64,000 nt of DNA from a candidate division SR1 bacterium (lineage in GTDB: Bacteria > Patescibacteriota > Gracilibacteria > Absconditabacterales > Absconditicoccaceae). Numbering within the stretch: position 1 is the first letter of the stretch; the number at the start of each line of letters is the position of its first letter. The stretch covers positions 8,989 through 72,988 of the forward strand of contig SKJI01000007.1 in the NCBI GenBank assembly GCA_007115995.1, given 5' to 3'. Both the position numbers and the translations under genes were made by a program. The notes beneath the pieces are model-generated. The model was not told the DNA's origin and did no database searches. It saw only the letters and a program-made list of their open reading frames with translations. This document shows, piece by piece, positions 9,935-62,368 of the stretch.

Positions 9935-10477
9935 ATGATTTCAGGAAAAAAAGTTGTTTATGATCATTGTACCATGATACACAATGATATGTTTGGTATA
10001 GAGGTAACATACACAGGTCAACAACAACTCTGACAGTTTTTTTTATATCCACAGCTTGATCAAAATAATCAGACTATTAGATATTATGCATTTGATGATA
10101 TTTTACAAAAAACTCAGTTTGAACAATTACTCAAGCTTCCATGAATTGGAGGCAAGACAGCTTATCATATCGCATCGTTACCTCATAATCTCTTAGAGGA
10201 TGCAGTAGAAAAAATGGATGTTGCTTTTTTTCAGTCCTTACCATGAGTCTGACCTAAGACTGCAAAAAGACTTTTGTTGGAGCTTAAACAAACAGTCTCA
10301 AAAGATGATATGATGACACTGTCTGGTGATCCAAAAATTGCTCAAGATATCACGAAATCGTTACAGTCGTTATGATATCAACAGCAAACAATCAAATTAT
10401 TACTACCAGATGTTCCATATCGTTTTGAAAAAGAACATATTCCTGATATTATGAAGCGATTGATAGATCATATGTAA
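9935..10477 (+). CDS. ruvA: Holliday junction DNA helicase subunit RuvA
   Basis: MISGK.., two HhH motifs LLKLP(G)IGGKTAYHI and LP(G)V(G)PKTAKRLLLELK. An alternative ATG lies at 9926. Confidence 0.85.
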
Positions 10478-10502
10478 GAATGTTTTATTTATTGTGCTAT
10501 TT

Positions 10503-12929
10503 ATGTTTGATTTTGGAATCTTATGAATGAATGCAAGGAACTTATCATATATAAGAAAGTTCAATAATAAAAAAGCAATTCGTTTGGCTGATAATAAAGA
10601 GAAAACAAAACGTTTTTTACATGCAAGATGAATACCAGTACCTGAAACATATGCACTTATTAAAACATATGATCAGCTTTGGTCGTTTAATTTTCGTGAT
10701 ATTGAAGCAGATCAGTTTATTATTAAACCAGTGAGATGAAGTAGAGGAAGATGAATTTACCGTGTTGGATGTCTCTGAACTATCAAACAGTCTACCATAA
10801 TGCAATTTTGACCACAAACTTTTGATTTCTCAATTTCTAAACATTCTCCATATGTTGATGAGTATTATAAAGTAGGTTCATCACTAGTAGACGATACAAC
10901 ATTAAGAAGGTATTTATTGGATATTTTATATTGAAGAAATTCACTTGTTTGAGATAAAGATCAGATACTTATAGAAGAACTGTTAGTTCCATGATGAGGA
11001 TTTGAACCATTTTGCGAGCATGGTTTAGCAGATATTAGAGTGATAGTGTTTAACTTGATTCCAGTTGCTGCGATGCTTCGTGTTCCTACGCCAGAGTCTG
11101 ATGGTAAAGCAAATCTTGATAGATGAGCACTATGAATGGGTATTGAAGTTTGATCATGAAAAGTGTATTGAATGTATGTATGATGAAAAATTCATCAAGG
11201 TCATTTCCCAGATAAATATAAATCGTTTGCTCATAAAACAATTCCTTATTGGGATGAAATTTTATTGTATTCTTCAAAAATTCAATATTTTGCAAACTTA
11301 TGATATTTAGCTCTGGATTGGGTTATTACACCTGATTGACCAAAATTGCTTGAAATCAATGCTAGAGCATGATTAAAGTTTCAGTTAGCTGCTCAGCTCC
11401 CACTCAAAAGAAGACTCGAAAAAATAGGTGATCTCAAGGTAGTTACACCAGAAAAATGAGTTGAAATAGCACAAACATTGTTTAGTCACCACAAAACTCC
11501 ACCAGTTGCAAGCTCAAAATTACTCTATTTGACACAACATGGTACATTAACATCACTGTATGAAGCAAAAGAAAAGGTGGTTACAAATGTGATTGTGCAA
11601 GTAGATATCAATAAACGTCATAGTTATGTCTCTGTAGATTTATGGCCTTTGGTCTTACAGACGAGAAAAACCATAGTAAAGACTGAGCAGTGAGTGGAAC
11701 TTTCACATATTAAACGAAAAAAATTAGAAAAACAATATAAACATAGAATAATTCTGTGAAGAGAAGCAGTAGCAGAATATTATGTCAAACCAATCAATAA
11801 AATTTTCACCTCACTTTCATTTATCAATCCCAAAAAAATCTTGCAGTCTGAAATTGATGATATTCATATTTTGGATCAAAGAGTCGATAAGCTAGCGAAA
11901 CAGATTAACATTTCTAGAATCTTGAAACCGATAAATTTCTTGGAAGAACTTGATACTTTTATAACTCGGAATGGGAAATATAATCCACATTTTCATTATG
12001 CTTGGCCAACAAATAAGTCATTACGTCTGTTAACCGAGCAGTCTGACATGCTTTTGGAAAAGTATTTTGGTACAAGTTGATTGCAAAGTAAATTTGCGCA
12101 ATTATTTAAGGAAAAAATTAGAGAAATTCAGAAGAAGGTTGAGCTGATAAGAGCATATAAATCACAAGATTTTCATCGTATTATTCAAGCAAATCAAGCA
12201 TTGTTTTGAAAACTTGATAATGATCTTATTCAACAAGCGTGAGCGTGTTTTATTCAGCATGTTGATCAAGATAGAACCATCTTATGACCAGTACTAAAAC
12301 GTGAAAGAATATTTGCATTGATAAAAACATACATGCATGAAAGATGATTACATGATGTGAAAATAATTTTTGATAGTAATGCATTATGAAGGATGTCTAT
12401 CAAAAGATGAAGAATCTTGACGATCAGAATTTCAGAAGTTGCTTGATTTAGAGAGCAAGAGCTTATTGCAACATTGGCGCATGAAGTGGATGTACATATA
12501 AGAAGATACCAATCTTGAATAGCCACATGATGGCATATCCTCAAAAATTGAACTGCATGATATATAGTAGATGAGGAATGACTTGCTGTATACAAAAGTT
12601 TACAACATCTTCCTGATGAGTATGAGAAAGTAGGAATGTATCAAAAATATTACTTGTTGAGTATTACCCAAGAAAAATCCTTTTCTGATTTGGTTTGAAT
12701 TATTAGATCGTTATCAAACAAATCATTAATGTGATCATTTAAGGCAGCCTTGAGATTAAAGAAGTGAATTACAGATACCGAGAGAGATGATTGAATAGTC
12801 TATAGCAAAACGAAAATATATCTCGAATGATATACTCATATTTGTAAACGAATAGAAGCGTGATGAGACGTTGAGCAACTTTTAAGTATTTGAAAAATAA
12901 AAACATCTGATTTATCTTATATACAATAA
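10503..12929 (+). CDS. Fusion protein (808 aa): N-terminal ATP-grasp (RimK/alpha-L-glutamate-ligase-related) domain plus C-terminal DUF1704/QEGLA-motif metallopeptidase-like domain
   Basis: N-terminus MFDFGIL(G)MNARNLSYI, IKPVR(G)SRGR(G)I, ADIRVIVFN, LEINARA(G)L. C-terminal half LAHEVDVHIRRY (HE-x3-H) and VDEE(G)LAVYKS (QEGLA-like). One uninterrupted frame, checked codon by codon at risky spots. Confidence 0.7.
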
Positions 12930-12938
12930 TCTGAACGT

Positions 12939-14471
12939 ATGATACAAGAAACGATACAAGCATGTGCAGATCGTATAAAAAATACTCCGTGATTGAGAGA
13001 GATTCTTGAATTAACATATGCATATGATATTACTGATCATCATATATACTATAATAAAACACTTTTCAAAGAGTTTTCAGATTGTTCACAATGTAAGAGC
13101 TATGACGAATATTATCAGACACTCTCACGTGCATTTGATCAAGTAAAAAATGATATCACTTACTATTACGGTGTTTTTCAAACATTGCAGTCTTTGGATG
13201 TATATACTGCAACAGTTGTGGACATTATGAGCCGTTATTGTGAATATCTTTTGGATATGATACAGATTGCATACACATGATTGCCATTTGAAATAGAAAA
13301 AATGTGATATACATTACCGTTTTGAGAAGAAGAAATACTCCATCGTCTCAAACAGATTGCAGCATGAGAACAAAAACGATTTGGAACGTTAGTCAAAGAC
13401 GATAGATATGAAGCAAGTAGAGTAATATACTATCTTGAAACATCACTCAAAGAACTCTGATTACAAAGATTAACATACGATGAGATCAAACAGTTTACAC
13501 AATACATAAAAATCCTCAAAGAGCAGAGTAAATACTGCAAAGAGTTTTGTGATGATCATGAAGATCATATTGAGTATATCATGACAGGGCAGGAGTATTT
13601 TGCACAACCGATTCATAGGTCGATCTATGTACAAATTTTTGCCCATGTTTTTGCTATATATGGTATCGAAAAGCCGATACGTATAGAAAGTAGATCATCG
13701 ATGTATGATGGTGTTGATGCATTTTGTATTCCTGATAGTCCATGATACGAAACATTATCGTTGCAAAGAGTCTTGGAGTTGGTCTGTCATGAAATAGAAA
13801 TACATTATCTTGTGCAGCATAATTGATCTCTGCTTCTACCGATTACTGATTGAGCAAACTCATTGTTTAAAGAGGAGTGACTTGCCAAGTTTATGGAAGA
13901 GATATTGGATGGTGCGACATTAATCAATATGGATATTACCCCATCAATAATACAATTATTAGCGTGTGAAATTTTGTGATGAGATGATTGTATGCAATTC
14001 TTGAAGATATACTATCGTTTGAGAAATCAACAAGATCAATGGCTTGGATACTTCCTAAGACGCAAAAGAAACTATGCGATTGCATATCCATGAACGCAAC
14101 ACAAAGACATTACTTATAGTAGATGAAGATTTGCTGTGAGATGATATTTAATGGATTGATGAGATTTTCTGTCGCTCTATTATGCTAAAGTTGATTTTCA
14201 TGATATTGCATTATTATCATCTGTGATCTCACAGCAACAAAAACAACACTTGCTTTATCCTTTATTTATCACTGAAAGAGTGCTACATCGTTTACTATGA
14301 GATAAACGTTCATGGGATGATCTGCTCGCAAAAAAATATCCGTTTATTGATTTTGCATCATATCCGTCGTTGGAGCTCAATAAACAACAAACCCATCATA
14401 TCGAAGCAATTATTGGTCTCATTCATGATAATTTACCAATCCCTGATTATTTTCATTCATGAAAAATATAG
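12939..14471 (+). CDS. Second DUF1704/QEGLA-type domain protein (510 aa), a paralog of the C-terminal half of the upstream fusion
   Basis: VCHEIEIHYLVQHN (HE-x3-H) and FKEE(G)LAKFMEE. Starts 9 nt after the previous stop. Confidence 0.6.
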
Positions 14472-15136: not shown

Positions 15137-15181
15137 ATTTCTATTTGTAGTTCTCAATAAAATAACTATAGTATCGATATC

Positions 15182-16069
15182 ATGAACAGCTTACTCGTAA
15201 ATTATATTGTCTTGTTTTGAAGCTTTTTGCTTGTTGCATTATTCATGATTTTTTTGATTCGTGCAATGATGCAAGGGAGATTTTTTGTAATGATTATTCG
15301 AGCGTTTCTGTTTTTAGTATTTTTTTGGTCAAGATTTATTGAACCACAGAAGATTGTCTATGATGAAATTACTGTTGATTTATGAGTATGAACGACAATA
15401 GCACTCATTTCTGATACGCATCTGTGAGTTTTCAAAGACCAAAATTTTTTGCAAAAAGTAGTGGATCGTATCAATGATCGTCCGGAGGTTGGTATTGTGT
15501 TGATAGCAGGTGATTTGCTGTATAATCCTACCTATAATCAATCATTAGAAACACTCTTTGCTCCATTAGCGTCGTTACGCGCACCGGTCTATGCAGTGTT
15601 ATGAAATCATGATGTCGGTGTGCCATGAGATCCGTTTTTGAGACTGCCACTGACGCAAGCGTTGGAAGCACATGGCGTCACTGTAATGAAAAACGATATT
15701 ATTTGGATCAATAATTTTTTCTTAGTCTGAATGGCACCATACCTCTCAAACGAGGCAGATGTGAGTTTGTTGGAACGTGTTGAGAAAGATGAGACTGTGG
15801 TTGTCCTTACACATAATCCGGATACAATTACAAATTTCCCCAATGATCATGCAGATTTAACACTCGTCTGACATACGCACTGTGGTCAAATCAGAATTCC
15901 ATTGCTGTATAATCTGTTGAGGTCGTATATCGTTCCGGTAACAGGTGATTTCGATTGTGGATTGACTCAAGAAGCAACCACGCGTTTGTATATTACGCCA
16001 TGAGTTTGAGAGGTGTTACTACCGATGAGATTACTCAATCCACCTACTATTTCTCTTATTTCAATCTAG
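15182..16069 (+). CDS. Membrane-anchored metallophosphoesterase (calcineurin-like, YkuE type)
   Basis: N-terminal TM helices, then ISDTHL(G), IAGDLL, VL(G)NHD, LTHNPD, V(G)HTHCGQIRIP. Confidence 0.75.
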
Positions 16070-16819
16070 ATGCAGCTTTTTTTACTTAAAACACCACCGT
16101 CTACTCCTGAAACAGTTACGCTGAGTGATGCATGACTTGTTTATCAAATGAGTCGTGTCTTGAGGATGCGTTCTTGAGATCGTTGTGCACTCCAGCGAAC
16201 AACATCTGATGTAACTACTAGAGCGATTGTAACACTGACCAGTATTGATCGCACACAAATCACAACCTCGATTGAATCGATAGACTATCGTGATAACCAC
16301 CAGATTCGCACACGTTGTGCTGTCGCGTTTCCTAATAAGTTCTCCAAACTCGAACTGATCGTCCAAAAACTCACGGAACTTTCTGTCGATGAGATAATAT
16401 TATTTGGTGCTGAAAGATCACAACCGATGAGACTTCAAGAAAAAAGACTGCAAAGAATCAATACTATTATCAAAGAAGCGACTGAACAGTCCCGATGACG
16501 ACAGCAACCAGTTCTTTCCATATACCCAACACTTACTGATATTCCTGTATCTGAGCAGTGTGTAGTTGCAGATATTCCAGATCACCGTAGATACTTTGGT
16601 CCTGAAACGATACAATATGATCCTCAAAGCTATCTCACACACCACGAAACAGAGCATCATGTATCTGTACCAGTGCGATATATATGACCAGAGTGATGAC
16701 GATGAGCTCGTGATTATGAGTTTTTTGCTCAGCAAAAAACTACCATGATAACCTTATGAGACACAGTCTTGAGAATGGAAACTGCTGCAGTAGTCTGTGG
16801 TTTTTTGGCAGGATTGTAG
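16070..16819 (+). CDS. rsmE: 16S rRNA (uracil1498-N3)-methyltransferase RsmE
   Basis: LIVQKLTELSVDEIILF, IIKEATEQS.., I(G)PE(G)(G)[CGA](G)ARDYE, L(G)DTVLRMETAAV. Its ATG abuts the previous TAG. Confidence 0.8.
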
Positions 16820-17137: not shown

Positions 17138-17366
17138 GAGAATTACTAAAAAAATAAAGAATACTTTATTGTATATATAGAGTACTTATAAAGCAAAAAA
17201 TACTCAATAAAAATAACTTTTAATCTTGTCTTTTTTATGTATTCTAGTACATTATAACAATGATACATGTAGAAAGAATTTATATGTTTATGTGCGTCTT
17301 ACATCATACATAATATAGTACGTAGCACATTTATTAAAATATCCTTTATTATAGATTATTACTAGT

Positions 17367-20300
17367 ATGGATCCAAAACATATCACCCAAGCAGTCTTGG
17401 AGTATCGACAAACAACTGATGCGTTTCAGCAATCAATCGTGATCAGATCACCAGCGATGAACTATACGTTTTTTGATGGGCCACCGTTTACAAGTGGAGA
17501 TCCGCATTATGGACATCTTTTGCAATCTACGATCAAAGATATGATTCCTAGATGGATGACTATGCGTGGGTATAGAGTACCGCGTGTATGGTGATGGGAC
17601 TGTCACGGTATTCCAGCAGAAAATTTCGTCAATAAGTCATTGTGAATCAGTTCCAAGAAGCAAATAGAAGAAGAGGTAGGAATAGAATCATATATAGAAG
17701 CATGTAGAAGTATGGTCAATAATGTCAATGAAAACTGGTCCAAAGTTGTCGATCAGTTATGACGTTGGGTTGATATGGATAATGCATATTTCACCATGGA
17801 CAATGCATATATGGAAACGGTGATCAATATATTTTCAGATCTCTATCACAGAAATCTGATCTATAAGGGATTTAAAGTGTTGTGATACTCTTGGGCGTTG
17901 TGAACATCACTATCAAATCATGAAATCAACGAATGATACGAGATGAGACAAGATCCAGCCGTGACGATTGCGTTTCCTGCACTGACGGTCTGAGAGCATG
18001 ATCGTTTTCAAACAAGCGAGCTCGGTGCAGTGCAATGTGTTGCATGAGTGATAGAGCAAGATGGAAAATTGCTTCAAGTCTATGATACAAGATCATCAGT
18101 CTGGTATTATCCATGATGAAAAGTTGAGAAAGGTGAAACGAAAGAACAAGCACTTGCAAGAGAAATTAACGAAGAGATTTGAGTAACCGTTACAACGAGT
18201 ACGTTGCTTGGTGTCTTGCATGTGCCGTTTCGTGGTATTCTTTATGAATTATCGTATTTTTCTGTAACGATTGATGGAGTGCCAACAAACTGTGAACCTG
18301 ATAAGCAAGGTGCTGTCGAATGGGTCGAGCAGATACCATTCGATAATGAACTCTGATTTGCACTCAAAGTAGGTGATTTGCTCTTAGACGATCGCAAACA
18401 AATCGAGCATGATTTCAAGGATTATTTTTTCATAAAAAATAAATACTACGAACTTCCGTGATTATCGAGTATGATTCCATCGATGCTTGCACGAACAACA
18501 ACGCCGTGGACGCTTCCATCTAATATGTTTCTCGCAGTCAATGCTTCTATTTGGTATGCAGTGGTATACGATCATGAAAAACAAGCATTGTTTATCATCG
18601 CTCAAGAAGCGCTTGATCGTGTCTATCCAGACAAGAAAGCATATCAAGTGTTGTTTGTCACATCATGATCTCACTTGGTGGGATTAAAATATGAGCCACC
18701 GTTTTCATACTATCATGACGATGAGACGATCGCAAACGAGTATAAACAACAAGTACATCGTGTAGTTCATGCTGATTTTGTGACAACTGATGCAGGGACC
18801 GGAATCGCCCATGAAGCACCTGCGTTTGGTGAAGATGATTATAATCTAGTCTGTACGATCTTACCCAAAGATCACGCGCAAGACTGGTTGTTTGATCCAA
18901 TTGATGATCATGGATCGTTTACTGATTGTGCGCCTGATCGATCATGAATGAATGTAATCGAAGCAAATAAACTGATTATTGCACATCTTAAACAAACAGG
19001 GAGATTATTTAAACATGAAACAATCAATCATAGTTATCCGCACTGTCCGCGTACAGGGACACCGCTGATCTACAAAGCAATTCAATCTCGATTTGTCCAA
19101 GAAGAAGACCTCAAAACACAGACAATCCCAGCTGCAGAACAGATGCGTTTTGTACCAGACTCTATCAAGAAAAGATTTATCAATGGGCTTGAATCAGCAC
19201 CAGACTGGAATATATCAAGAAGTAGATATTGGTGATGTCCGTTACCTGTCTGGGAAAATCCTGATAATCCAGAAGAAAGACTCGTCGTCTGATCACTTGA
19301 TGAGATATTTCAATACAATAAGCCTGCACAACAACTCACCAAGGTGATCTTTGTGAGACATGGGAGAACTGACTATAATGACAAAAAACGAGTTGACTGT
19401 CTTCCAGCTGACAAAGCACAACTCAATGAACTGTGACGTCAACAAGCTGCGTTACTGCCTGAACATTTTGCGTGAGTACAGATTGATCATATCTATTCGT
19501 CACCGATGAGTAGATGTAAAGAGATGATAGCACCATTAGCAGCAGAGCGTGATTGCACTGTGCACTATGATGAGAGAATACAAGAAATTGGAAATTATGG
19601 CTTTCAAGACAAAGTGTTTGATTGTAGCACTATCTCATGGAACGACCAGCCAGTAGATGGTGCAAGCGGTGAGAGTATACAAGCCGTTGCAACAAGGGTC
19701 GAAGCGTTTTTCCAAGAGATCGTTGCAAAGCACCCATGAGCGTGTGTGGTGATTTGTTCACATGGTGATCCTATAGCATTGATGAGAAAAATGATCTACC
19801 AAAAAGACTATGCATATGCAAAATCACGTTTGTATCTTGATAATAAATCGCTCGAGCAATTGCCTGTCTGTGTCGATTATGTACGGCCTGAAACAGGACA
19901 GTATGTTGATTTACATAGACCGTATATTGATACAGTACTGTTACATCATCCAGAGACGGGGCATATTCTGCAGAGAATACCAGAAGTTCTTGATTGTTGG
20001 TTTGAGTCGTGAAGTATGCCATTTGCACAGCATCATCGATTGAAATCTGAACAGTCTGATGAGACCGTACCAGTCGCTGATTTTATTGCAGAATGACTCG
20101 ATCAGACGAGATGATGGTTTAGAGCATTGTATGTGTTGTGACATGCGTATGTGTGACAATCAGTCTATACTGATACTGTTGTGACGGGACTAATTCTCGC
20201 TGAAGACGGAAAGAAAATGTCCAAAAGACTCAATAATTTCCCAAATCCATTGGAGTTATTAGATCAGTATGGTGCAGATCCACTGAGATTGTACTTGTTT

Positions 20301-21383
20301 GCATCACCGGTAGTCAGAGCAGAAACGTTGAGGTTTGCTCAGTCTGGTGTCGAACAGATGTTTAAGGACGTGGTAATTCCACTCCATAACGTCTGGAATT
20401 TTTTGAGTACATACGCTGCTGTTGATGCATGGAAACCAGCAGAAAGTACAGTCTATTTTATGAGACATGCACATTGTCATCATACTGAAGAATCACCAAG
20501 AACGAACGAAACACCTATCAGTAAGCTCTGACAGCAACAACTCCAAGAACAATCGTTTATCGAAGAAGTGTTGAGAGTAAACCCTGATATTATCATCACA
20601 TCACCTGTCCAAAGAACACAAGATACAGCTGCTGCAGTCCAAAATATCCTTGATCGTTATCTCTGAAAAACTGTTGAAATCCGTATTACCGATGATTTAT
20701 CAAGATGAATGACAGAAGAAAATGCTGGAGATATTATACAACGCTTCCAAGAGCAGTATCCATGACAAACTATCCTGTTGGTTAGTCACAAAAAAAGATT
20801 CCGTATGCTGCGAAAAGTCTTGACTGGTTATGAGCATTCTGTGCATACGCATGAGATGATGGAGCAGTTGTTACTTGAAAATACTCAGATTGTGCCGATT
20901 CCATTGCAGCTCATACATAATGAATTAGATCAGTGGATATATGCAGAGTTGCATCGTGTTATTATGCTTGTTGATGAACATCTTGCATCATATGCAATAG
21001 AGCATGCTACCAAAGTGTTGATAGGATTTGTCGATAGTTTGACGAACTGGTATGTGCGTAGATCAAGAAGAAGGTTTTGGGCTTCAGGTATGGAACAAGA
21101 TAAGCGTAGTGCATACCAAACGTTATGGGATGTGTTACAGACCTACTTGCGTCTTTTGGCACCGTTTGCACCGTTTACGAGTGAGTATCTTTGGCAAGCT
21201 ATGCAGATGCCATGATCAGTCCATCATGCTTCTTGGCCAATCTGATCAAAACAACGAATTAATCAACAACTTCTTGAAGAAGTAGAGTGTGTAAGAAAAA
21301 TAATTTCTTGAGCAATGTACATAAGGGCAAAGAATCAGATAAAAATCAAACAACCATTATCATCGTTGGAATTTTCATTTTAG
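17367..21383 (+). CDS. ileS: Isoleucyl-tRNA synthetase (type 2, eukaryote-like class I core) carrying three in-frame inserted domains
   Basis: [13 protein letters not shown], (G)WDCHGIP, LA[CGA][19 protein letters not shown](G)CPLPVW, CWFES(G)SMPFAQ, E(G)LDQTR(G)[26 protein letters not shown]. Eight track ORFs are all frame 0. I verified 17580-18480, 19200-19515 and 19980-20190 codon by codon and found no TAA/TAG. Confidence 0.9.
17991..18470 (+). other. Nudix hydrolase domain inserted in IleRS, just before the [11 protein letters not shown] segment
   Basis: Perfect Nudix box G-x5-E-x7-REUxEExGU: (G)[20 protein letters not shown](G)V at 18117-18185. Confidence 0.75.
19341..19900 (+). other. 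Histidine-phosphatase (phosphoglycerate-mutase-like) domain inserted in IleRS
   Basis: [13 protein letters not shown] (RHG at 19356-19364), ..[12 protein letters not shown].., [10 protein letters not shown]. Lies between LDEIFQYNK and DLHRPYID of the IleRS core. Confidence 0.65.
20455..20900 (+). other. Second, more divergent histidine-phosphatase/SixA-like domain inserted in IleRS
   Basis: [10 protein letters not shown] (RHA at 20463-20471), [22 protein letters not shown]. Lies between DAWKP and [11 protein letters not shown] of the anticodon-binding region. Confidence 0.45.
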
Positions 21384-22015: not shown

Positions 22016-23305
22016 CTATTCTTCTTTTTCTGGAAGATGTATATACCAATTTATGAGTAGTGCGTCAAGATTATATCAAGACTCTATAAGGAGCTCATTG
22101 AGGTTGTCATGAAAACGATCAGGATCAAATGCTACAGTAGTATAGAATTCTGCAACTAATACAGTTTGATGTGACTCAATAAGTTTACTATCGACCAATA
22201 GAACTGGTGGATATAATAATGCAAGAAATCTTTCTATAGTTTCGTTTATTTTTTCTAACGGTTGAATACTTGTTGTTGTTGCAAATGATTCAGCACGAAT
22301 AAACTGAATAATTGAAATGTCTACATCAACATCTTGCTGTAGTACATCAGCAAGCTTTTGCGTGAGTGTGTTTTTTTGATTGAGAGTAAATGGTATTGAT
22401 TGTGGTGCTCTTAATTTAACCGACAATGATCTATCAAGAAATTGAAATGACTCTAAACTCATAGATGGATCGATTGTTTGTATGTAGCTCTGAATCGTGG
22501 TATTGATTACTTGTCTTTGATTTATGGACTGAATGATACTAAATAATGAAGAAACAAGGGGAACAGTTAGTCATACTATCATAAGTAGTGAAAATCAAGA
22601 TGTGATAATTGTAGTCTTGAGTTCTTTTTTTTGATTTGGCCAAAATCAATAGAATAGAAATAATAAAACTCAGGCAAGAATAATAGCGATCAAATTTGTA
22701 AGAAATAATATCCCACTTGATACCGCCACTGACCATTGCAACATACCAATACCGATTCATACAACTGCAAGAGGGGGGACAAGAGATGCTGCCATTGCTA
22801 CTCATGCAATTCATATTGAAATATTTTTATATCTAAATGCTAGAAATGCTATACATCACGATGCAAACGCAATACCTAAGTCGATAATTGTTGGTTGTGT
22901 TCTCATCAAGATTTCATTGGTTAACTCTGAGAGTGGCACAAGAAATGTGATACAGATGGCAGTAAGAATACTAAACAGAATACTACTTATTGTGAGGATG
23001 AGTCATTTACCAAAGAGTTTTCTATTTCCAGTAATAATACCAAATGATAATGCTTGGATAGGTCTAAGGATAGGAGCAATAAGCATAGCACCAATAACAA
23101 CAGGAGTAGCATTGATAAGCAATCAGAGTGTTGCGATGATAATCGATAAGATCATTTGTGACCGATACTCAAGTCCAGTTTCTACATCTTTAATAATCGA
23201 GGTCGCAATTGTAGTTTTTTCTTCTCAACTAATTGGTAATAATGCAAGCGCTGAAAAAAATCATTTGGTTTTTTCTTCTGGTGTTCTGATGACGTCGTTC
23301 AGCAT
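22016..23305 (-). CDS. DUF389 family integral membrane protein (429 aa)
   Basis: LSIIIATL(G)LLINATPVVIGAMLIAPILRPI plus several further TM helices. Continues in frame into track ORF 22076..22462 and reads through its TGA to TAG 22016. Confidence 0.75.
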
Positions 23306-23423
23306 AACATGATAGAAAAATTGATAAAAGTTTGAGAAGAATTTTATAAAACTCAGTCTTGAAAATTTGATGTCTATTCGTATACTTTGTGGTAGTTTTT
23401 CTATTATATTTAAATTATTTGGT

Positions 23424-24308
<885 letters not shown>

Positions 24309-45172: not shown

Positions 45173-45201
45173 TTGACAAATAAAGTATTGACGTGTATAC
45201 T
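45173..45201 (+). promoter_or_regulatory. Strong sigma70-like promoter candidate (TTGACA-N17-TATACT)
   Basis: ttgaca 45173-45178 and tatact 45196-45201, 34 nt before ATG 45235. Confidence 0.45.
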
Positions 45202-45234
45202 ATAGATAAGTTGTTCTTTTACTCAAGACATCAC

Positions 45235-48200
45235 ATGGTTGATACGATACGATGCAAAAATCAAATATGACTACTTCATCAGCAATATCCTTGATTGATC
45301 AATAGTTTTTCTCGTTTTACACAACAAGCATGGTGAGACTATAAGGAGTTTTGTTTGCATGATTTTTGATCGACTGTTGCGATTAGAACGTTTTTGTTAA
45401 ATCCTTGAGATTTTCAATTTGTGGCAACAAATCATCTATGAGAGCATGGGTCATGAGAACATGGAGCTGCTGATGAGCACTCAGTTGAGGGTGAAGAAGG
45501 GACTGTAATACTACAAGAATCGTCATGATCATTTAATGATTTTTGGGATTGACTGTGAGATAATATGTGATCATTTTTTTCTTTTGCCTTATGGTTTATT
45601 CTCTGAGCGATTATTACTATTTCATTATTTAAAGCTATCAAATACTTTTTGGTTTTGATGTATGATGTCTTTAATGCAAAGAGAATTGAATACTTCAAAG
45701 TAATCCAACCTAGATGAGACTCGAAACTTGATCGTGAAGTCCAAAGAGAACTTGCAAAAGATATGAAAGAAAAGATTTCCAGAATGGCTCAAGTCTATGC
45801 AAATGTTCATAAATTATGAGAATTGAGTGTTGTTGATGGTATTTTGAGGAGATTATTTAAAAAGCCCAAAATTACTTTTTTGTTACACTATGAAAAATGA
45901 AAAATAGAGTTTATCATCGGGACATATCCAGAATATAGAAAAATTGTAGAATCAGCGATAGCAGCGCAGTATTCAGATTCTTCATTACAAACGATTGAAA
46001 AACCTCATTTCTTCTCTCATCAATATAGCGATCTCATGCCACTTCAACCAATAAAAGAGTGAGTCTATCCAATTAGAATGTTTAGACAAATGGAAGATGA
46101 CCCGATTAATAATATTATCGATTCGATGGCCAAAATTCCTCAATCTGACACCTTTACAATGATGTTAACGGTAAGACCTGAAAGATGAGCTTTTAATCAA
46201 AGAGCACAAAAATTTGCAGATGCACTGTATAGAAAGGATGATTCTGTAACAAAATGAACAAGATTTTTTCAGTATTTGCTACCTTGGAACTTATTGAAAT
46301 TTCTCACAAGATGACCAAGTGAGGAGTTGGTACAAAGATTTACTGGTGACAAGACACGTTGAGATCCTATGATTCGTATGGTCAAGGCAGAAGAAGAAGC
46401 ACTCAATAATATGGCAGAAGAAGCTGGTAAGAAAGCATTTTATTCATGACTGATGCTTTTATCGAGTTCGCCACAACCAAAAAAAGCAAGAGAAAATATT
46501 TATAATTTGGTCAGTGCGTTTACTGTGTATAGTGATGAGTACAATAATGCATTAGATCAGCCAGAAGTGCTGTCTGATATTTTTGGCGTGATTGTGAAAC
46601 CATTATGGAGAGCAAGTATTACGTTTTTGATTCCGTGATTTTTTTATAAGAAAAACGTTTTTTCTGTGAGTGAACTTGCATCATTATTCCATCTCCCTGA
46701 TGGGATGTACAATCGTTCACCGGCAATTTCTTGGATGGATTACAAAATGCTAGCACCACCTGATAACTTACCGCTGCTCAAAGAAGAAAATCCTGATTTC
46801 TTTATGACATGAATTATTGCTGAATCGTACAAATGATGAAATATTTCCAAGATTTTATCTGACAAAATTCATCCAGCAGTGTGAATCAAAGAGGAAATAC
46901 ACGAAGAGAAAATTCCAGTCGATGCATCGTACGTCTTACAAGAGTGAGAAGAGTTGCGTGAGGAGGATGACTCGCTTTATGTGATACGCAAAACAACAAC
47001 AAAAAAAGCAGCACTCAAGATCTACAATGATTGAATCTTGTTATGATTGAACGTGTATAGGAATAAGTTTTCTCCGGTCTATATGAAGCAAAAAGATAGA
47101 ACGAGACATCACTATATTATTTGAAAATCGGGTACGTGAAAATCGGTCTTTATCGCTGCGCTTGCAAGACAGGATATCTGGGCAAATGCATGAGTCTGCG
47201 TTGTTGATCCGCATGGTGATTTGGTAGAGGGAATTTTGGAGTATGTACCAAAACATAGAGCAAAGGATGTGATATATTTCGATGCAGGAAATGCTGAGCG
47301 TCCAATGTGACTCAATCTGTATCAAGTAAAATCGTTTAATGAGGCAGATAGAGTCGTCAACGATGCTGTTGAAATTTTCATCAAGATGTTTGGTCCAGAG
47401 ATTTTTGGTCCGCGTATCCAAGAATATTTTAAGTATGGAAGTTTGACGTTGTTGGAGGATATGGAAGATAGAGCGACACTGATCGATGTGCCAAGGTTGT
47501 TTACTGATGAGTGATATAGAGAGTACAAAATTGCAAAAGTAAAAAATCCAGTGGTCAGAAACTTTTGGGACAAAACATATAACGCAATGGGTGATCGTGA
47601 GAAACAAGAAATTATTCCATATTTTACTTCGAAATTTGTCTCGTTTACCACAAACTGACTGATTAGAAACATTATCGGACAAACTGAATCAGCATTCAAT
47701 TTTAGGGATGTAATGGATAACTGAAAAATCTTATTGATTAACTTAAGTAAAGGTATGATTTGAGAGCTGAATGCACAGTTGTTATGAATGATTATCGTGT
47801 CCAAAGTGTATAATGCTGCTATGGGAAGAGCAGATATGGCAGAAAAAGATCGTAGATTCTTTTACTTATATGTGGATGAGTTCCAAAACTTTGTAACTGA
47901 TACGTTTGCAGATATTTTATCTGAAGCAAGAAAGTATAAGCTTTGTTTGATTATGGCACATCAGTATATTGCACAGCTTGATTGATCAGCATGAAACAAT
48001 ATCTGAGAGTGAAAGAGTAAAGTGAAGGATGCGGTATTTGGTAACGTTTGAACGATGCAATCATTTAAAGTCGGTGCCCCAGATGCAGAGTTTTTGGAAA
48101 AGGAATATGCTCCTGTGTTGAGTGCGCAAGATATTTTGTGAATTGCAAACTACAAAGCATATATAAAACTGAATATCAACAATACTACCTCAAGAGTATT

Positions 48201-48441
48201 TAGTCTCAATGCATTATGGACGCAGGATTATAAAAATGAAAGAGTTGCAGAGATTCTAAAACAATACTCAGAAAAGAAATACGGACGTAAGAGAGAGTTT
48301 GTCGATGCAGAAATTGCAGCCAGGTTGTGAATACTTGGTGATAATCATGAAATTCCCTGAGTAGATGACTTACAGCTTGAAAGTGATACTGCATGAGACA
48401 CAGAATCAGAGTCTGATTGAGATGAGAATCAATCAGAATAA
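45235..48441 (+). CDS. Large VirD4/TraD-type (type IV coupling protein-like) P-loop ATPase, paralog 1 (1068 aa)
   Basis: TM segment FFLLPYGLFL(G)AIITISLF, Walker A HHYII(G)KS(G)T(G)KSVF, VVDPHGDL, LLINLSK(G).., FFYLYVDEFQNFVTDTFADILSEARKYKLCLIMAHQYIAQL. Checked codon by codon over 46081-47160. An alternative later start (Met near 45565) is possible. Confidence 0.75.
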
Positions 48442-50826: not shown

Positions 50827-50907
50827 AACAAAAATATTAATAATCAAAGAGTGTAAGTATATCTATTCTCATATTGAATACAATATTCCATTGAGTATGA
50901 TAGAACT

Positions 50908-52953
50908 ATGTTTAGACAAGTAGGTTTTTTTTCTTTTCTTTTTTTCTTGAAGCTTGCATGCTGATATTTTTTCTCGTTTCCTGTATCTGCATCTACAGTA
51001 GTTTGATCTCTTAATCTACAGACTCGCCAAGAACGATGAGCAGATGAATCATTGAGATATGGAAGATGAGCAACAGTGACAACAAGCTTTAATCAAGAAG
51101 GAGATCAAACTGATTCAACAGCACCACTCAATAATCAAGAAAAAAATATTGTGAGAACAAGATTTCTCCAAGAGCAATTCCCACAATATATAATGCCAAC
51201 GCGTATTGAAACACATGAGTGATCAAATCGTTTGAGATGGCCATTACAGTATACCCCCAAAACATGAATTATATTACATCATACGGCTGATGGATTTGTA
51301 TACGAGTATCCACAACAAACATATCAGTATATTCGTGATATTTATCACTCACATGCTCGCCAAAGAAACCGATGAGATATTTGATATAATTATCTTATAG
51401 ATCCATTTGGCAATACATTTGAGTGAAGGGCTTGATGACCTACTGTTGCATGAGCGCATACTGCATGGAATAATGCAACAACAATATGAGTATCATTGAT
51501 GTGAAATTATCATCTTAGACAACCTTCACAAGCTATGTGGTCTGCACTTGTTAATCTGCTGACATACTTATCTGTAACATATGAAATCAATCCATGAGAT
51601 CGTCACACGTACTTTGAGGCAACAGACCAGTACCCGTTTATTGAAGTACTCAATAATTATGCATTAATAGGGCATAGAGATGCTTGAGACACTGTGTGTC
51701 CTGGTCAGTATGTCTATGCTGAGTTACCATCATTGAGAATGGAAATTATCCAGCGTTTACAACGATTAGATAGTCATGGTATTGAAGAGCTGCAGCTGGA
51801 AAATTTTGTACGTCGTGTAGAACCATTTATTCTATCAGGAGATACTGGAGTGTTGCGGTTTGATCGTCTCAACAATCATGCTGTATCATGCAAAAGTTTT
51901 ACTGCATCACAAGCTATAAGTTCCTGTCATTTGTTATGAGAAAAAATTCTCATCACTATACCGTATGTATGAGCTGGTTCATCTTGAAGACTTTCGTTAT
52001 GAATACAGCAATGACCAGCAGTACAGTTTTTGGATGTAGCTATAGTGTGGGAACAAGAATTTACTGAGTCGTTTTTACAAGATCATAATGCGCAGGTATC
52101 TTCAGCATTGAAACAAGATCAAGCCGTGCCTTTATCAGCACTATGGCATCATATGCAATCACCCATTTCTGTTTTATTGTATCAACCAACCGCTACGCTC
52201 AACACATGGGAATTTAGCTGTACGTGAACATGTACAGTGCTTGCAGGAGAGAGGTTTGTGCATAATCCATCTCATATACGTGTAGCAAAGGCAGGAGATC
52301 AAAGATTACAAATAATTATAGATGATGAGTTGATCTGGGCGCAGAGTTTTGGTATCAGTACTCTCTGATGAGAGATAATATTAGAAAATTTTACAAGAGC
52401 GGAACACTGAACTGCATTAAATAGGTTTCAGTGATCAATAACTATTACGTCTTCAAAACGACAAGATTTACAGTGAATACTTCATGAGTGATTTATTGTT
52501 GTCAATACCCTTGCTTTGGATGAGTATCTCCATGGTGTCTCAGAGTGGTCAGAACACTATACTGATCAAACATTAGAACTATTGGCAATACTTGCAAGAC
52601 AGTTTGCGTTATTATATCGTTCAGGAGCTATAAGGCATCCTGCAATACCACAATGAGTATGATATCATAGTATTGATCATCCTGAACTGTTTCAGTGATA
52701 TGTTTGAATATGACAAAAGGACTATGCTCAAAGACGATGAAGAGCAGTAGAAGCAAGTAGAGGAAAGTATGTCCTTCTTGAAGATAATGCAGTAAGACTT
52801 ATGCCCTTACTTCGCTATAAATCATGACTTTCTAGAGGCACAACTCTTGGGTTACGTGATGTTGATTATTGGTTGCATCAATGAGTATTGGCTCAAAGAG
52901 TGCTTGATCGATTTATGCCTGGTGTAACAATTGTTTCATGATATCTCTTTTAG
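50908..52953 (+). CDS. Secreted N-acetylmuramoyl-L-alanine amidase (Amidase_2/PGRP) fused to a SpoIID/LytB domain
   Basis: IILHHTA, HARQRN[CGA](G)DI(G)YNYLIDPFGNTFE(G)RA(G)(G), (G)AHTAWNN, L(M)(G)NY. Later VVNTLALDEYLHGVSEWSEHY and ARQFALLY. Confidence 0.8.
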
Positions 52954-59723: not shown

Positions 59724-59899
59724 TTCAGACTGTAAAGCATTTATCATAAAAAATGAGTAGTCAACTATTTTTTTCTAGAAAATACACTTGTAAATTATAC
59801 TCTGAATGAAGAGATTACTAATTTTGCTCTTTGCACTGTTTTCAGTATACTAAGAGTACTGATAATAGAATAATTTTTATTTGTAGTGAAGTTTGCTTG

Positions 59900-62368
59900 A
59901 TGATATTATCAATTGCTGAGCGTTTATGATGAGTACTTGCATCGATCTTTGGTACAAAGCAATCACAGAATAATTCTATATGTTTTGAAATTATCCCATA
60001 CAAAGAAAATGAGTTTGGGCAAGCACATTGGTGATCATTCCTTGCAAATTTTTCTAGTTTTCAGGAACATCTCTATTTTTCAATCGAATGAAACACGAAG
60101 CAGATCAAACTCTTTATGTATGCGCCAGAAAGCTATCAAGAATACATAAGAAATATTTTTTATGCAACATTTCCTACCAGTGATATAAAAATTCACCCAC
60201 AAAAATCACTCAAAAAACACCCATCTAATCTTAAATTTTCTCATGACAGTGTGTTTTATGAAACACATGAATTTATGAAATGATGAGAATATGTTGATCC
60301 ATTCAAAGATGTTCTTTCGCTTTTTTGATCAATTCCTCAAGAATGAACACTTTCGTTACTATATAGTTGTCAATTTAAGGTAAAAAAGACTTTTTTTCAA
60401 AAATGTTTAGCGTTGCGAAAGAAATTTTTTAGTAACGATAAAAGTGAAAAAAACACAAATGATAAAGAAGAAGTAAGTCAACAAGAAAATGTAAAAAAAG
60501 TTTGAAAAGATGTAATATTTGCTTTACAGTATTTTTTACATTTAGATCCGCAATGATATATAAATAAAGTAAATACAGACATTAATCATGTTTTTGATAA
60601 ATTTTTACAACAAGGAACAGTAAAGCCATCACAGTCTATTCATTGGGTGAGTACTAACTTAGATGCATTTATCAATCTCTTTCATATCCCAACTAAATCA
60701 TTCTTAAACAATACTTTACATTATATTCCATATCGTAAGTTAGAACATCCTGTTAATTTGCCAATGTTATCAAATACATCAAGTGATGATCTAACTATTT
60801 TATGAAAAACAGAATACAAAAACCAATGAATTGAGTTTGGTATCAAAACAGAAGATAAGTTTAGACATGTATATATTGTGTGAAAAACGTGAATGTGAAA
60901 ATCTACATTCATTTCAAATATGGTGAGAAGTGATATGCAGACTAATCATTGATTAGCAGTGATTGATCCTCATGGCGATCTTATTGATGATGTATTAGTA
61001 CATATTCCATCTCATCGTATCAATGATGTTGTGGTTTTTGATGTGAGTGATACTGCATATCCTGTCTGATTTAATATTTTGGAATTTAATACTCCTGAAG
61101 AAAAAACGCTCGTAGCATCTGCTGTTGTTTCAATCTTCAAAAAACTCTTTGCGCACAGTCGATGACCAAGATTAGAGTACATCCTCAGAAACGTTATGTT
61201 GTCTGTGCTTGACTATCCAAATACAACATTGATGCATGTGATGCGTATGCTCAACGACAAAAAATTTAGAGAAGAAGTATTGACACACGTATCTGATCCA
61301 GTTGTGATGAAATTTTGGAGAGATGAGTATGACAAACGACAACCAAGACAAGTTCAAGAGGCAGTCTGACCGATCGCAAACAAAATTTGACAGTTTTTAT
61401 CATCTCCAGTTGTGAGGAATATTTTTGCTCAGCCCAAGAGTAGTTTGCAGTTAAGAAAAATTATGGATGAAGGGAAAATATTGCTTATTAATCTTTCTAA
61501 ATGAAAGATATGAGAAGATAATGCGAGTATGCTGTGATCTTTTCTTGTCTCTAAATTCCAAATTGATGCTATGTCTAGAGCTGATGTAGATTATAATATG
61601 AGAAAAGATTTTTATTTGTATATTGATGAGTTTCAAAACTTTGCAACTGACTCATTTGAAAGTATCTTATCAGAAGCAAGAAAGTATCGTTTATCATTGA
61701 TTGTTGCAAATCAGTATACTTCTCAAATTCAAGAAAATGTCAGAAATGCAATTTTTGGGAATGTCGGGACTATCGTGAGTTTTGGTCTGTGATATGATGA
61801 TGCAATGCTTATGTCTCAACAGTTCAAAGAGCTTATTTCTCCCAATGATTTACTTTCATTGCCTAAATTTAAAGCATATGTAAAGCTTATGGTTGATTGA
61901 GTTACTACTGACCCTTTTACTATGGGGACATTTCCTCTACCATTACCTGAATCATGACCAGAAATTAAAGAAAAAATTCTCAAACAGTCAAGACAGCGTT
62001 ATGCAACTGAAAGAGAAAAACTTGAGTCGCTCTTGCAAGCTCGAATGGAAAAGCAGTTTACAGAGTCAGAAAAAGTCATCGAGAAAGTGCAACAAGAAAC
62101 TCTCAAACAAGATGGTACAACATTTAGTATAGATGATTTAAAAGTATGAGAACGATATGACTGATATGTGAAGCTAAAATATAATTATTGATTATTTGTG
62201 ACTGTAAAAGGTGTAGAGTGATTATTACATAAATCGTTGGTTAAGGTGCCAGACACCTTATCATCATGGAAAGACTTGTATGTTATTTGAGATAAGATAT
62301 CTGTCAAGGTTGACTGATTCAAAGAAATTGAGTGAGAAAAGAAAATTGTTTGGACGCAAAAAGATTAG
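59900..62368 (+). CDS. VirD4/TraD-type coupling-protein-like P-loop ATPase, paralog 2, with a C-terminal S1 RNA-binding domain (822 aa)
   Basis: Walker A HVYIV(G)KT(G)M(G)KSTF, VIDPHGDL, LLINLSK(G)KI(G), FYLYIDEFQNFATDSFESILSEARKYRLSLIVANQYTSQ. Tail V(G)E[CGA]YD(G)YVKLKYNY(G)LFVTVKGVE(G)LLHKSLV...V(I)(G)DKISVKVD. Codon-checked over 59939-60900. Confidence 0.75.

Follow-up and report, generated by a model that had tools for sequence, protein, structure and literature searches.

Aminoacyl-tRNA synthetases gain lineage-specific domains in loops or at their termini, such as the UNE-I, GST and WHEP domains of eukaryotic enzymes and the leucine-specific domain of LeuRS, which are mostly non-catalytic binding or assembly modules. 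Among the isoleucyl-tRNA synthetases (IleRSs), a bacterial enzyme with an extra enzyme domain has a curated precedent in the NCBIfam model NF040702 (ileS_w_GNAT). The mycobacterial protein MutT1, which breaks down 8-oxo-(d)GTP stepwise and also diadenosine polyphosphates, unites a Nudix domain and a histidine phosphatase in one polypeptide. The mupirocin-insensitive type-2 IleRSs, represented by Thermus thermophilus IleRS (PDB 1ILE), the yeast and Candida enzymes (7D5C, 6LDK) and MupA and MupB, share HIGH and KMSKR motifs, a CP1 editing site, CP2 and CP3, and a helical anticodon-binding domain (ABD) with an Arg for the anticodon loop. Here we describe an IleRS gene from a candidate division SR1 bacterium, located on a stretch of 64,000 nucleotides (contig SKJI01000007.1 of assembly GCA_007115995.1, positions 8,989 to 72,988) that is referred to below as the window. 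The encoded protein has all of these core elements in common with the type-2 enzymes and matches the MupA and MupB models at ~540 bits, but it carries three additional domains (~520 amino acids, aa, in total) and lacks the C-terminal A, B and C domains (~210 aa). In contrast to the binding and assembly modules of other synthetases, this bacterial enzyme has gained three phosphohydrolase folds of catalytic appearance: one Nudix domain and two domains with the histidine-phosphatase fold, designated HP-A and HP-B. There is no GNAT domain, and with 258 bits against a cut-off of 1999 the protein is not a member of NF040702. The gene and its parts, all on the forward (+) strand, are as follows.

17367..21383 (+), whole IleRS gene: 1338 sense codons and a TAG stop; 32 TGA codons stand for Gly and 8 CGA codons for Trp
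17367..17981 (+), aa 1-205: Rossmann fold (first half), CP core and opening strand of CP1, the editing domain; yeast IleRS counterpart 16-212
17406..17408 (+): CGA codon at aa 14, read as Trp from core-column alignment
17982..18479 (+), aa 206-371: insert 1, MutT-like Nudix domain with a conserved extension of ~50 aa; Pfam NUDIX, 7.5e-13
18117..18185 (+), aa 251-273: Nudix box, an exact fit to Gx5Ex7REUxEExGU
18480..19310 (+), aa 372-648: CP1 editing domain (Thr-rich peptide, D491), CP core, CP2 and start of CP3; aligned to yeast IleRS 218-489
18492..18494 (+): CGA codon at aa 376, where the editing motif WTTTPW has its invariant first Trp; read as Trp from core-column alignment, Arg under code 25
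19311..19901 (+), aa 649-845: insert 2 (HP-A), complete branch-1 histidine phosphatase; Pfam His_Phos_1, 2.1e-33
19902..20444 (+), aa 846-1026: rest of CP3, second Rossmann half, stem-contact fold and first ABD helix; aligned to yeast IleRS 497-668
20445..20915 (+), aa 1027-1183: insert 3 (HP-B), shortened SixA-like histidine-phosphatase-fold module; Pfam His_Phos_1, 2.9e-12
20916..21380 (+), aa 1184-1338: helical ABD; Pfam Anticodon_1, 9e-33

The recoded protein scored 753.3 bits against the TIGR00392 ileS equivalog model of NCBIfam, above the cut-off of 621.4, and Pfam detected tRNA-synt_1 (6e-109), Anticodon_1 (9e-33), NUDIX (1e-11) and His_Phos_1 in two stretches (7e-44). In a phmmer search of PDB, yeast IleRS (3e-188) and Thermus IleRS 1ILE (5e-144) were matched far better than the type-1 IleRS of Staphylococcus aureus (6e-68). 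Because the best PDB matches are eukaryotic or type-2 IleRSs and the type-1 enzyme is far weaker, the protein is classified as a type-2 (eukaryote-like) IleRS. Invariance was assessed in a 121-sequence alignment comprising the window protein and 120 homologues, in which the synthetic and editing sites were preserved throughout. The HIGH motif takes the form HYGH (aa 47-50, at 17505-17516), with H47, Y48 and H50 invariant, and in KMSKR (aa 950-954, at 20214-20228) the same applies to K950, M951 and K953. The editing site comprises the Thr-rich peptide (aa 376-386), GTGIAHEAP and D491, of which T377-379, H482 and D491 did not vary, and R1234 of the ABD, also invariant, corresponds to yeast R739, which inserts into the anticodon loop. 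An earlier note on this DNA had stated that all hallmark IleRS motifs are present; this holds for HIGH, KMSKR, the editing peptide and the ABD Arg, but the C-terminal tRNA-binding domains are wholly absent.

The open reading frame (ORF) consists of 1339 codons including the terminal TAG, and within it TGA occurs in frame 32 times, TAA and other TAG codons not at all; the closest in-frame stop on its 5′ side is a TAG at 17352. Codon meanings were examined by projecting the window codons onto a core hidden Markov model (HMM) of 1062 positions that was built from insert-free IleRSs. At the TGA columns, 43 standard-code IleRS homologues contained predominantly Gly (404 pooled residues), followed by Ala (65), and three Nudix-box glycines are themselves encoded by TGA (18114, 18117 and 18180). 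The single 1338-codon frame with TGA as Gly, which the earlier note had proposed, was thereby borne out. That note had recognized no recoding other than TGA, and in this respect it was incomplete, as core-column alignment revealed a second reassignment. Eight CGA codons occur in the gene, at aa 14, 376, 525, 575, 675, 891, 1149 and 1297, and the six that fall in core columns align to Trp or to Phe, Tyr or Leu, and never to Arg, in the 43 homologues; those at aa 14, 376 and 575 are Trp sites, with Trp in 41-43 of 43. The lone CGG codon (aa 840) is uninformative as to codon meaning. Judged from the IleRS gene, this organism reads CGA as Trp besides TGA as Gly. A reassignment of CGA and CGG to Trp was predicted for the Absconditabacteria by Shulgina and Eddy 2021 (PMC8629427), and on the strength of this agreement the window was assigned to that group. 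Its G+C content ranges over 29-41%.

Public translations of the relatives' IleRSs (P0001-P0061 and others) have mostly been made with TGA as Trp and CGA as Arg. These database copies show W for Gly, so that the Nudix box appears as “PWWKVDLWET”, and R for Trp, as in “RTTTPRTLP”. The mistranslation degrades automated domain annotation; P0009, for example, has no NUDIX call.

Alignment with yeast IleRS (7d5c/9wqs) yielded four collinear blocks, at residues 9-206, 372-648, 846-1016 and 1185-1334 of the window protein, which places three insertions at aa ~206-371, 649-845 and 1027-1183. The insertion sites were located with the published domain limits of Candida (Ca) IleRS (PMC7191050). Insert 1 (17982-18479) lies inside CP1, where it separates the first CP1 strand from the Thr-rich one lining the editing pocket; insert 2 (19311-19901) lies inside CP3, immediately before DLHRPYID; and insert 3 (20445-20915) lies near the start of the ABD. 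The boundaries match those first given to within a few codons, and the three insertion points named there (before the Thr-rich editing peptide, before DLHRPYID and within the anticodon-binding region) agree with the alignment. HMM scans for NUDIX and His_Phos domains, which had been suggested as a check, matched all three inserts when each was scanned alone, and together with the yeast alignment they confirm one Nudix and two histidine-phosphatase-fold domains in frame within an IleRS. Since the core aligns in four collinear blocks and insert-free IleRSs exist in other phyla, the inserts are separable modules sitting in loops. By their profile matches, they are assigned to the Nudix and branch-1 histidine-phosphatase superfamilies, and to no characterised subfamily within them.

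Scanned alone, insert 1 scored 49.1 bits against Pfam NUDIX (cut-off 21.1; 7.5e-13), which places it in the superfamily, and its Nudix box fits the consensus exactly, as had been noticed. The module itself is present in all 121 sequences, and none of the Nudix-box residues E257, R265, E266, E269 and E270 varies among them (121/121). In NCBIfam and PDB, MutT, NudG and Bdellovibrio RppH were matched best. With the MutT/NudG-type (d)NTP pyrophosphohydrolases and with Bdellovibrio RppH (3EES, the best PDB sequence match at 8e-10), insert 1 shares the Nudix box and the fold; unlike them, it is embedded in a CP1 editing domain and has a C-terminal extension of ~50 aa, in which F350 is invariant. It reached 46.5 bits against the MutT equivalog NF008044, which has a cut-off of 148, and it resembles the MutT family at the subfamily level only. 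A database search with the isolated insert returned 12 free-standing MutT-like proteins, a number that is no measure of abundance, as the word index evidently overlooked embedded homologues. The nearest free-standing relatives are 125-138 aa long, share 35-44% identity with the insert and are named 8-oxo-dGTP diphosphatase or (d)NTP pyrophosphohydrolase. Hydrolysis of diadenosine tetraphosphate (Ap4A), a side product of such synthetases, had been offered as a speculative role for the Nudix domain. This link gained no specific support, the named relatives being of the above kinds and not diadenosine polyphosphate (Ap(n)A) hydrolases. The Ap(n)A-hydrolase subgroup of Nudix proteins is defined by a signature downstream of the Nudix box. 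The best-supported chemistry for insert 1 would be pyrophosphohydrolysis of the nucleoside triphosphate (NTP) type over specifically Ap4A cleavage.

HP-A, scanned alone, covered positions 1-177 of the 194 in the His_Phos_1 profile with 116 bits (cut-off 21.7; 2.1e-33). The residues expected of a branch-1 enzyme are present, namely RHG (664-666), N671, R716, E740 as the general-acid Glu, and H799; the VRHGRTDYN and CSHGD motifs are as originally described. The scores against subfamily equivalogs were all below their cut-offs (CobC 86/163, PspA 77/350, dPGM_arch 67/225, GpmB 54/261 and MutT1 44.5/475 bits), and the MutT1 model lies further from HP-A than do those of Rv2228c, CobC and PspA. MutT1 (PDB 5GG5, 9CXX; NF052459) combines the same two folds in one polypeptide and is weakly matched in both halves by the window protein, which falls far short of its model and is not a member; moreover, the two folds of the window protein are non-adjacent and occupy separate loops of the synthetase. 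Co-acquisition of the Nudix domain and the phosphatase from a MutT1-like gene was considered and rejected, because the phosphatase insert is far commoner in the candidate phyla radiation (CPR) and HP-A is not specifically MutT1-like. In the alignment, 108 of the 121 sequences carry HP-A; RHG together with the second His is retained in 106 of these 108, and RNG occurs once. A linker of 9-25 aa takes the place of HP-A in the remaining 13 sequences, P0002 and P0004 being examples of homologues without it, a natural deletion experiment that shows HP-A to be separable. A database search with isolated HP-A found one unnamed protein, which again is no measure of abundance, since the index evidently overlooked embedded homologues.

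HP-B is present in 121/121 sequences, and it is reduced. Scanned alone, it exceeded the His_Phos_1 cut-off of 21.7 with 47.1 bits (2.9e-12), matching only profile positions 1-75. In the window protein it retains R1033-H1034, R1083 and H1141, and the FMRHA and VSHKK sequences that had been pointed out are present; across the alignment, the R-H...R...H set is kept in 64 of 121 sequences and lost in 57. An alignment-based AlphaFold model of the HP-B homologue of P0002 had a predicted local distance difference test (pLDDT) value of 82.7 and a predicted template modelling (pTM) score of 0.82. Foldseek with this model found 3F2I and 2RFL at the top (E ~3e-6, TM score 0.66-0.69 by target), followed by phosphoglycerate mutases. 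As a description of shape, the label “SixA-like” applied to the third module in the earlier note seems a fair one, as the best PDB neighbours of the model of the P0002 homologue are SixA-type. HP-B resembles the SixA-type phosphatases (2RFL, 3F2I, 4HBZ) in size (~150 aa), in its predicted alpha/beta fold and in R-H...R...H, but the sequence identity is 16-21%, and about half of the clade has lost the catalytic residues. Alignment with the full-length site-3 phosphatases of Gracilibacteria reveals a missing segment, and this indicates that HP-B probably descends from such a phosphatase via internal deletion, and not from SixA.

In a catalytically dead subclade, the HP-B remnant is fast-evolving and measures as little as ~112 aa. 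Between L081 and L083 it is 85% identical, with an omega of 0.33 as opposed to <=0.12 elsewhere; between L081 (3001-7026) and L082 (3001-7017) it is 38% identical, compared with 80% for the ABD and 96-99% for most of the gene. Because the remnant shrinks and evolves quickly where the catalytic residues are gone, HP-B looks like a decaying domain. As a separate observation, the L081/L082 pattern looks like a recombination tract over the 3′ part of the gene.

The second departure from the type-2 pattern is at the C-terminus. The window IleRS ends 7 residues past KQPL at the end of the ABD, without the C-terminal domains; this end corresponds to position 848 of the 1062 in the core HMM and to yeast residue ~852, and nearly exactly to the “C-terminal-domain-truncated” Candida construct 1-856 that was reported with the Candida domain limits (PMC7191050). 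In the homologues (120/120), KQPL is followed by just 7-9 aa, and loci L001-L005 and L007 share this endpoint. The absent region, searched for with HMMs, was detected in 14 of 14 code-25 relatives outside the clade (E values of 1e-16 to 1e-29; one partial match at 2e-4), and the same HMMs found nothing at E <=10 in the six-frame ORFs of the 64-kb window or of the six loci L001-L005 and L007 (~6 kb around the gene). The domains that read base 34 of tRNA (N34), which are the junction and the zinc domain in type 1 and C-ter A/B/C in type 2, are lacking. The C-terminal domains, which hold the anticodon stem-loop in a clamp and read base 34, thus appear to have been lost from the IleRS of the clade. 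In yeast IleRS these domains perform both functions (PMC11685878), and the clade would have to recognize tRNAIle without them. With a net charge of -3 to -16, each of the three inserts is acidic; the ABD, by contrast, is basic (pI 9.1), so that the inserts would be poor substitutes for what has been lost. A replacement of the C-terminal tRNA-binding domains by HP-B in particular was judged unlikely, given that HP-B is acidic and fast-evolving and shrinks where it is catalytically dead.

A collection of 5.8 billion proteins contained more than 100 homologue clusters of 1337-1440 aa, with 99-100% query coverage and the same Pfam set, at 40-48% identity by BLASTP and 43-54% in the alignment. They come from many independent assemblies, some with contigs up to 1 Mb (those behind P0079 reach 1.03 Mb), and one cluster is labelled candidate division SR1. 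The search of relatives for the same inserts, as proposed at the outset, therefore found the architecture to be clade-wide in the Absconditabacterales. Among three related genomes (L001-L003), the ratio of non-synonymous to synonymous substitution rates (dN/dS) was 0.07-0.09 for the Nudix domain, 0.12-0.13 for HP-A, 0.02-0.11 for HP-B and 0.015-0.055 for the core, and these low values indicate that the inserts are under purifying selection, less tight than that on the core. The inserts are also the most divergent parts of the protein, with 34-39% identity to the nearest relatives as against 55-71% for the core. Inside the gene, 13 promoter-like sites were counted, compared with 22 ± 5 in shuffled sequences, and a scan for promoters and terminators gave nothing above chance. 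Misassembly and separate genes, the two possibilities that might have undone the original observation, are excluded by the more than 100 independent assemblies that share the architecture and by promoter-like sites below the shuffled expectation. The architecture is real, is conserved in more than 100 relatives and is broader than first reported. The earlier note knew of no described IleRS of this kind, and we likewise found no paper; the architecture is not unique, however, being clade-wide, and its elements are widespread in CPR IleRSs. The full-text literature, in which most subscription journals are outside coverage, contained no description of Nudix or phosphatase inserts in IleRS or of the C-terminal loss, and the arrangement is apparently undescribed.

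To place the three inserts among CPR IleRSs, we used 80 related loci from a scan of one genome per species; each was retranslated with the appropriate code and mapped onto the core HMM, and the window was excluded from the following counts.

Site 1: Nudix domain in 12/80 loci
Site 2: histidine phosphatase in 27/80 loci, from Saccharibacteria, Nomura-, Campbell-, Zambryski- and Dojkabacteria, Gracilibacteria, Vampirococcus and others
Site 3: histidine phosphatase in 18/80 loci, mostly Gracilibacteria and relatives

The lineages with occupied loops also include the Absconditabacterales. With the window included, every aligned site-2 module (26/26) and every aligned site-3 module (19/19) retains RH(G/A) as well as the second His, and 12 of the 13 aligned Nudix boxes are canonical. 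Insert-free IleRSs were found in the Bdellovibrionota and in several Patescibacteria, and at the other extreme the Gracilibacteria relatives have up to seven or more inserted domains per IleRS. In Gracilibacteria, IleRSs have a site-3 phosphatase and the C-terminal domains together, and the site-3 phosphatases predate the truncation. The three-insert arrangement in the window is thus a single combination out of an old and variable repertoire.

Several other modules were observed in these loops. A low-molecular-weight phosphatase (LMWPc, 3e-9) occupies site 1 in the Saccharibacteria locus L021 (IleRS aa 237-393), and a GNAT acetyltransferase (Pfam 3e-12, after W->G correction), comparable to the precedent of NF040702, is found in the SR1 homologue P0063 in a fourth loop, after CWFDSGSMP. 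The same position in further SR1 homologues, P0006 and its relatives (P0037, P0057 and P0065), holds an ASCH-like module (E 0.0014, below the cut-off), and alpha/beta modules of Gracilibacteria have a weak resemblance to Ser_hydrolase (E 0.006, below the cut-off). A module of ~180 aa at core-HMM position 266 (“site 1b”) recurs in L022, L024, L028, L029 and L031; a CYTH identity for it was dropped, as Pfam provided no support. The giant IleRSs of Gracilibacteria (L014, 6001-11211; L030, 3409-8487; L035, 6001-11679), with matched spans of ~1,700-1,900 codons, lie in code-25 ORFs of ~1,900-2,150 codons and contain up to four histidine-phosphatase copies together with alpha/beta-hydrolase-like modules. 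At site 2 of these giant enzymes, each inserted module is followed by an extra copy of the “LHKPYID” strand, the native successor of this site, a pattern that suggests cassette-like duplication or insertion.

Considering these data together, we favor, with a probability of about 0.55, the reading that the window encodes an Absconditabacterales type-2 IleRS with intact synthetic and editing sites and three autonomous hydrolase-fold domains that sit in surface loops and are maintained by selection, which has lost its C-terminal domains, would still charge tRNAIle and would have an active Nudix domain and an active HP-A. The protein would serve as the IleRS of the cell, and the Nudix domain and HP-A would act beside the synthetase as phosphohydrolases on nucleotide-type substrates. 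Most plausibly, the Nudix domain would convert an NTP or a dinucleoside polyphosphate (NpnN) to a nucleoside monophosphate, and HP-A might then hydrolyse the phosphomonoester; HP-B, as a decaying module, would have at most a residual or structural role. Several points weigh against this reading. No insert reaches any NCBIfam equivalog cut-off. HP-B is devoid of the ~45-aa segment bearing the general-acid Glu (“DDRFAEQAAGEYAG...”, from the Gracilibacteria site-3 phosphatases), and its structural model covers the module of a homologue that is 43% identical to the window module, not the window protein itself. An engineered, C-terminally truncated model IleRS activates Ile and does not charge tRNA (PMC11685878), which makes aminoacylation by the window protein an assumption. 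Finally, what ties the hydrolases to aminoacylation comes down to their fusion in one polypeptide and to the repeated appearance of hydrolase folds in the same loops.

That recurrence, in which different phosphohydrolase folds appear in the same IleRS loops across the CPR, is the reason for supposing that the chemistry of the inserts may be linked to that of IleRS, to which we assign a chance of roughly one in three or four. Such a link might run through nucleotide by-products, dinucleoside polyphosphates, alarmones or RNA ends. Also tentative is the wider proposal that the CPR IleRS is a conserved phosphohydrolase scaffold, with modules at the editing domain, at CP3 beside the active site and at the ABD, that might couple isoleucylation or editing to the turnover of nucleotides, dinucleotides or alarmones, a coupling so far unrecognized. 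The Absconditabacterales, whose enzyme dispenses with C-terminal domains that every studied IleRS requires for reading base 34 and charging tRNA, would then also have a new mode of tRNAIle recognition and tRNAMet rejection. The main rival to our reading, possible though not favored, is that the inserts are housekeeping hydrolases, such as a MutT-type sanitiser of the NTP pool and a general phosphatase or phosphomutase, which hitch-hike in an essential, constitutive gene of a ~1 Mb genome independently of aminoacylation. This would fit the free-standing MutT or (d)NTP pyrophosphohydrolases of 125-138 aa that are nearest to the Nudix module, the generic branch-1 character of HP-A, which is near no single characterised subfamily, the free gain and loss of single inserts between lineages, and the evolution of the inserts at 2-4 times the rate of the core. 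It accounts less well for the finding, in a survey that covered IleRS only, that Nudix, LMWPc, His_Phos and possibly Ser_hydrolase modules recur in the same three or four IleRS loops of distant CPR lineages.

The remaining explanations are considerably less probable. That the inserts, HP-B above all, are pseudo-enzymes for tRNA binding or domain positioning that offset the lost C-terminal domains is unlikely. HP-B is indeed found in 121/121 truncated IleRSs, even in the 57 of 121 where R-H..R..H is lost, it is located at the ABD, and its shortened form co-occurs with the truncation; but the acidity of the inserts beside a basic ABD, the shrinkage of dead HP-B to ~112 aa with its raised omega (and with 38% identity against 96-99% in one pair), and the existence of site-3 phosphatases older than the truncation, in Gracilibacteria that have both phosphatase and C-terminal domains, all speak against such a role, and the almost perfect conservation of the Nudix and HP-A catalytic residues points to catalysis. 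Slightly less credible still is a non-charging paralogue, a nucleotide-signalling or metabolite enzyme that makes only Ile-AMP or dinucleoside polyphosphates, or only edits, while another IleRS serves translation. The truncated model IleRS that activates Ile without transfer to tRNA (PMC11685878) and the coincidence of the natural end with engineered Ca IleRS 1-856 would suit it. However, the invariance of the editing site, the ABD and the anticodon-loop Arg, together with a core dN/dS of 0.015-0.055, fits a tRNA-handling enzyme; the ileS equivalog cut-off is passed; and no second IleRS for these metagenome-assembled genomes was seen among 195 relatives, in a scan whose patterns were specific to the window protein and could overlook one. 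Genomes of ~1 Mb rarely keep two IleRSs, which also counts against a paralogue. We consider it improbable that the Nudix, phosphatase, GNAT and serine-hydrolase modules provide an in-cis defence by destroying or modifying toxic Ile-AMP analogues at their target enzyme. MccE and RimL are examples of GNATs that acetylate aminoacyl-nucleotide antibiotics, and the GNAT in the fourth loop of P0063, the weakly Ser_hydrolase-like modules of Gracilibacteria and the dedicated ileS_w_GNAT model could be read in this light. The argument is pure analogy, however; neither an inhibitor nor an immunity context nor a biosynthetic neighbourhood came to light, and Nudix enzymes cut pyrophosphate bonds, which aminoacyl-adenylate mimics do not contain. 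An artefact, in the form of a chimeric assembly, a pseudogene or separate genes read as one, has a negligible probability: the 32 in-frame stops under the standard code would suggest it, but TGA aligns to Gly, Nudix-box glycines included, homologues at 40-54% identity from independent assemblies repeat the architecture, purifying selection acts on the inserts, and shuffled sequences contain more promoter-like sites.

The genes flanking the IleRS gene are the following.

15161-16069: membrane Metallophos protein, upstream of the IleRS gene
16070-16819: RsmE-type methyltransferase, upstream of the IleRS gene
22016-23746 (-): DUF389 membrane protein, convergent, downstream of the IleRS gene
23328-24308: ATP synthase gamma, downstream of the IleRS gene

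The IleRS gene is separated from the next downstream gene by 630 AT-rich bases. These neighbours are unrelated to IleRS and suggest no functional link. No tRNA gene, no Rfam family at the gathering threshold and no T-box upstream of ileS was detected in the 64-kb window. Elsewhere in the window, an 808-aa protein (10467-12929, +) consists of a sugar-transfer-associated ATP-grasp domain (2e-45) fused to a MATCAP-like carboxypeptidase domain (1e-14), and the adjoining 510-aa ORF (12930-14471, +) has an HExxH-like “HEIEIH” motif and no Pfam match. Two large paralogous ORFs (45184-48441, +, and 59822-62368, +) look in their C-terminal halves like coupling ATPases of type IV secretion; the former matched TrwB_AAD_bind (3e-8), TraG-D_C and T4SS-DNA_transf in Pfam, and the latter was judged by eye from the shared Walker motifs. 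A secreted-looking protein of 681 aa (50857-52953, +) combines Amidase_2 (N-acetylmuramoyl-L-alanine amidase, 1.5e-15) with SpoIID (1.4e-5), and is possibly a cell-wall lytic enzyme that may bear on a predatory or epibiotic lifestyle.

Synthetases with added domains are known, and what is apparently undescribed is the presence of three catalytic-looking phosphohydrolase domains inside the core of a bacterial IleRS. As a practical consequence of the altered code, miscoded database entries hide the motifs of these IleRSs from automated annotation. The clade appears to live with a truncated IleRS though engineered truncations cannot charge tRNA (PMC11685878), and this natural loss of the C-terminal domains provides a test case for the discrimination between tRNAIle and tRNAMet at position 34, a long-standing question. 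The occupancy of the same loops over much of the CPR, in polypeptides of up to ~1,900-2,100 residues, points to a selective reason tied to IleRS; if it is so tied, these enzymes would offer a way into the nucleotide economy of ultra-small symbionts, which is poorly understood.

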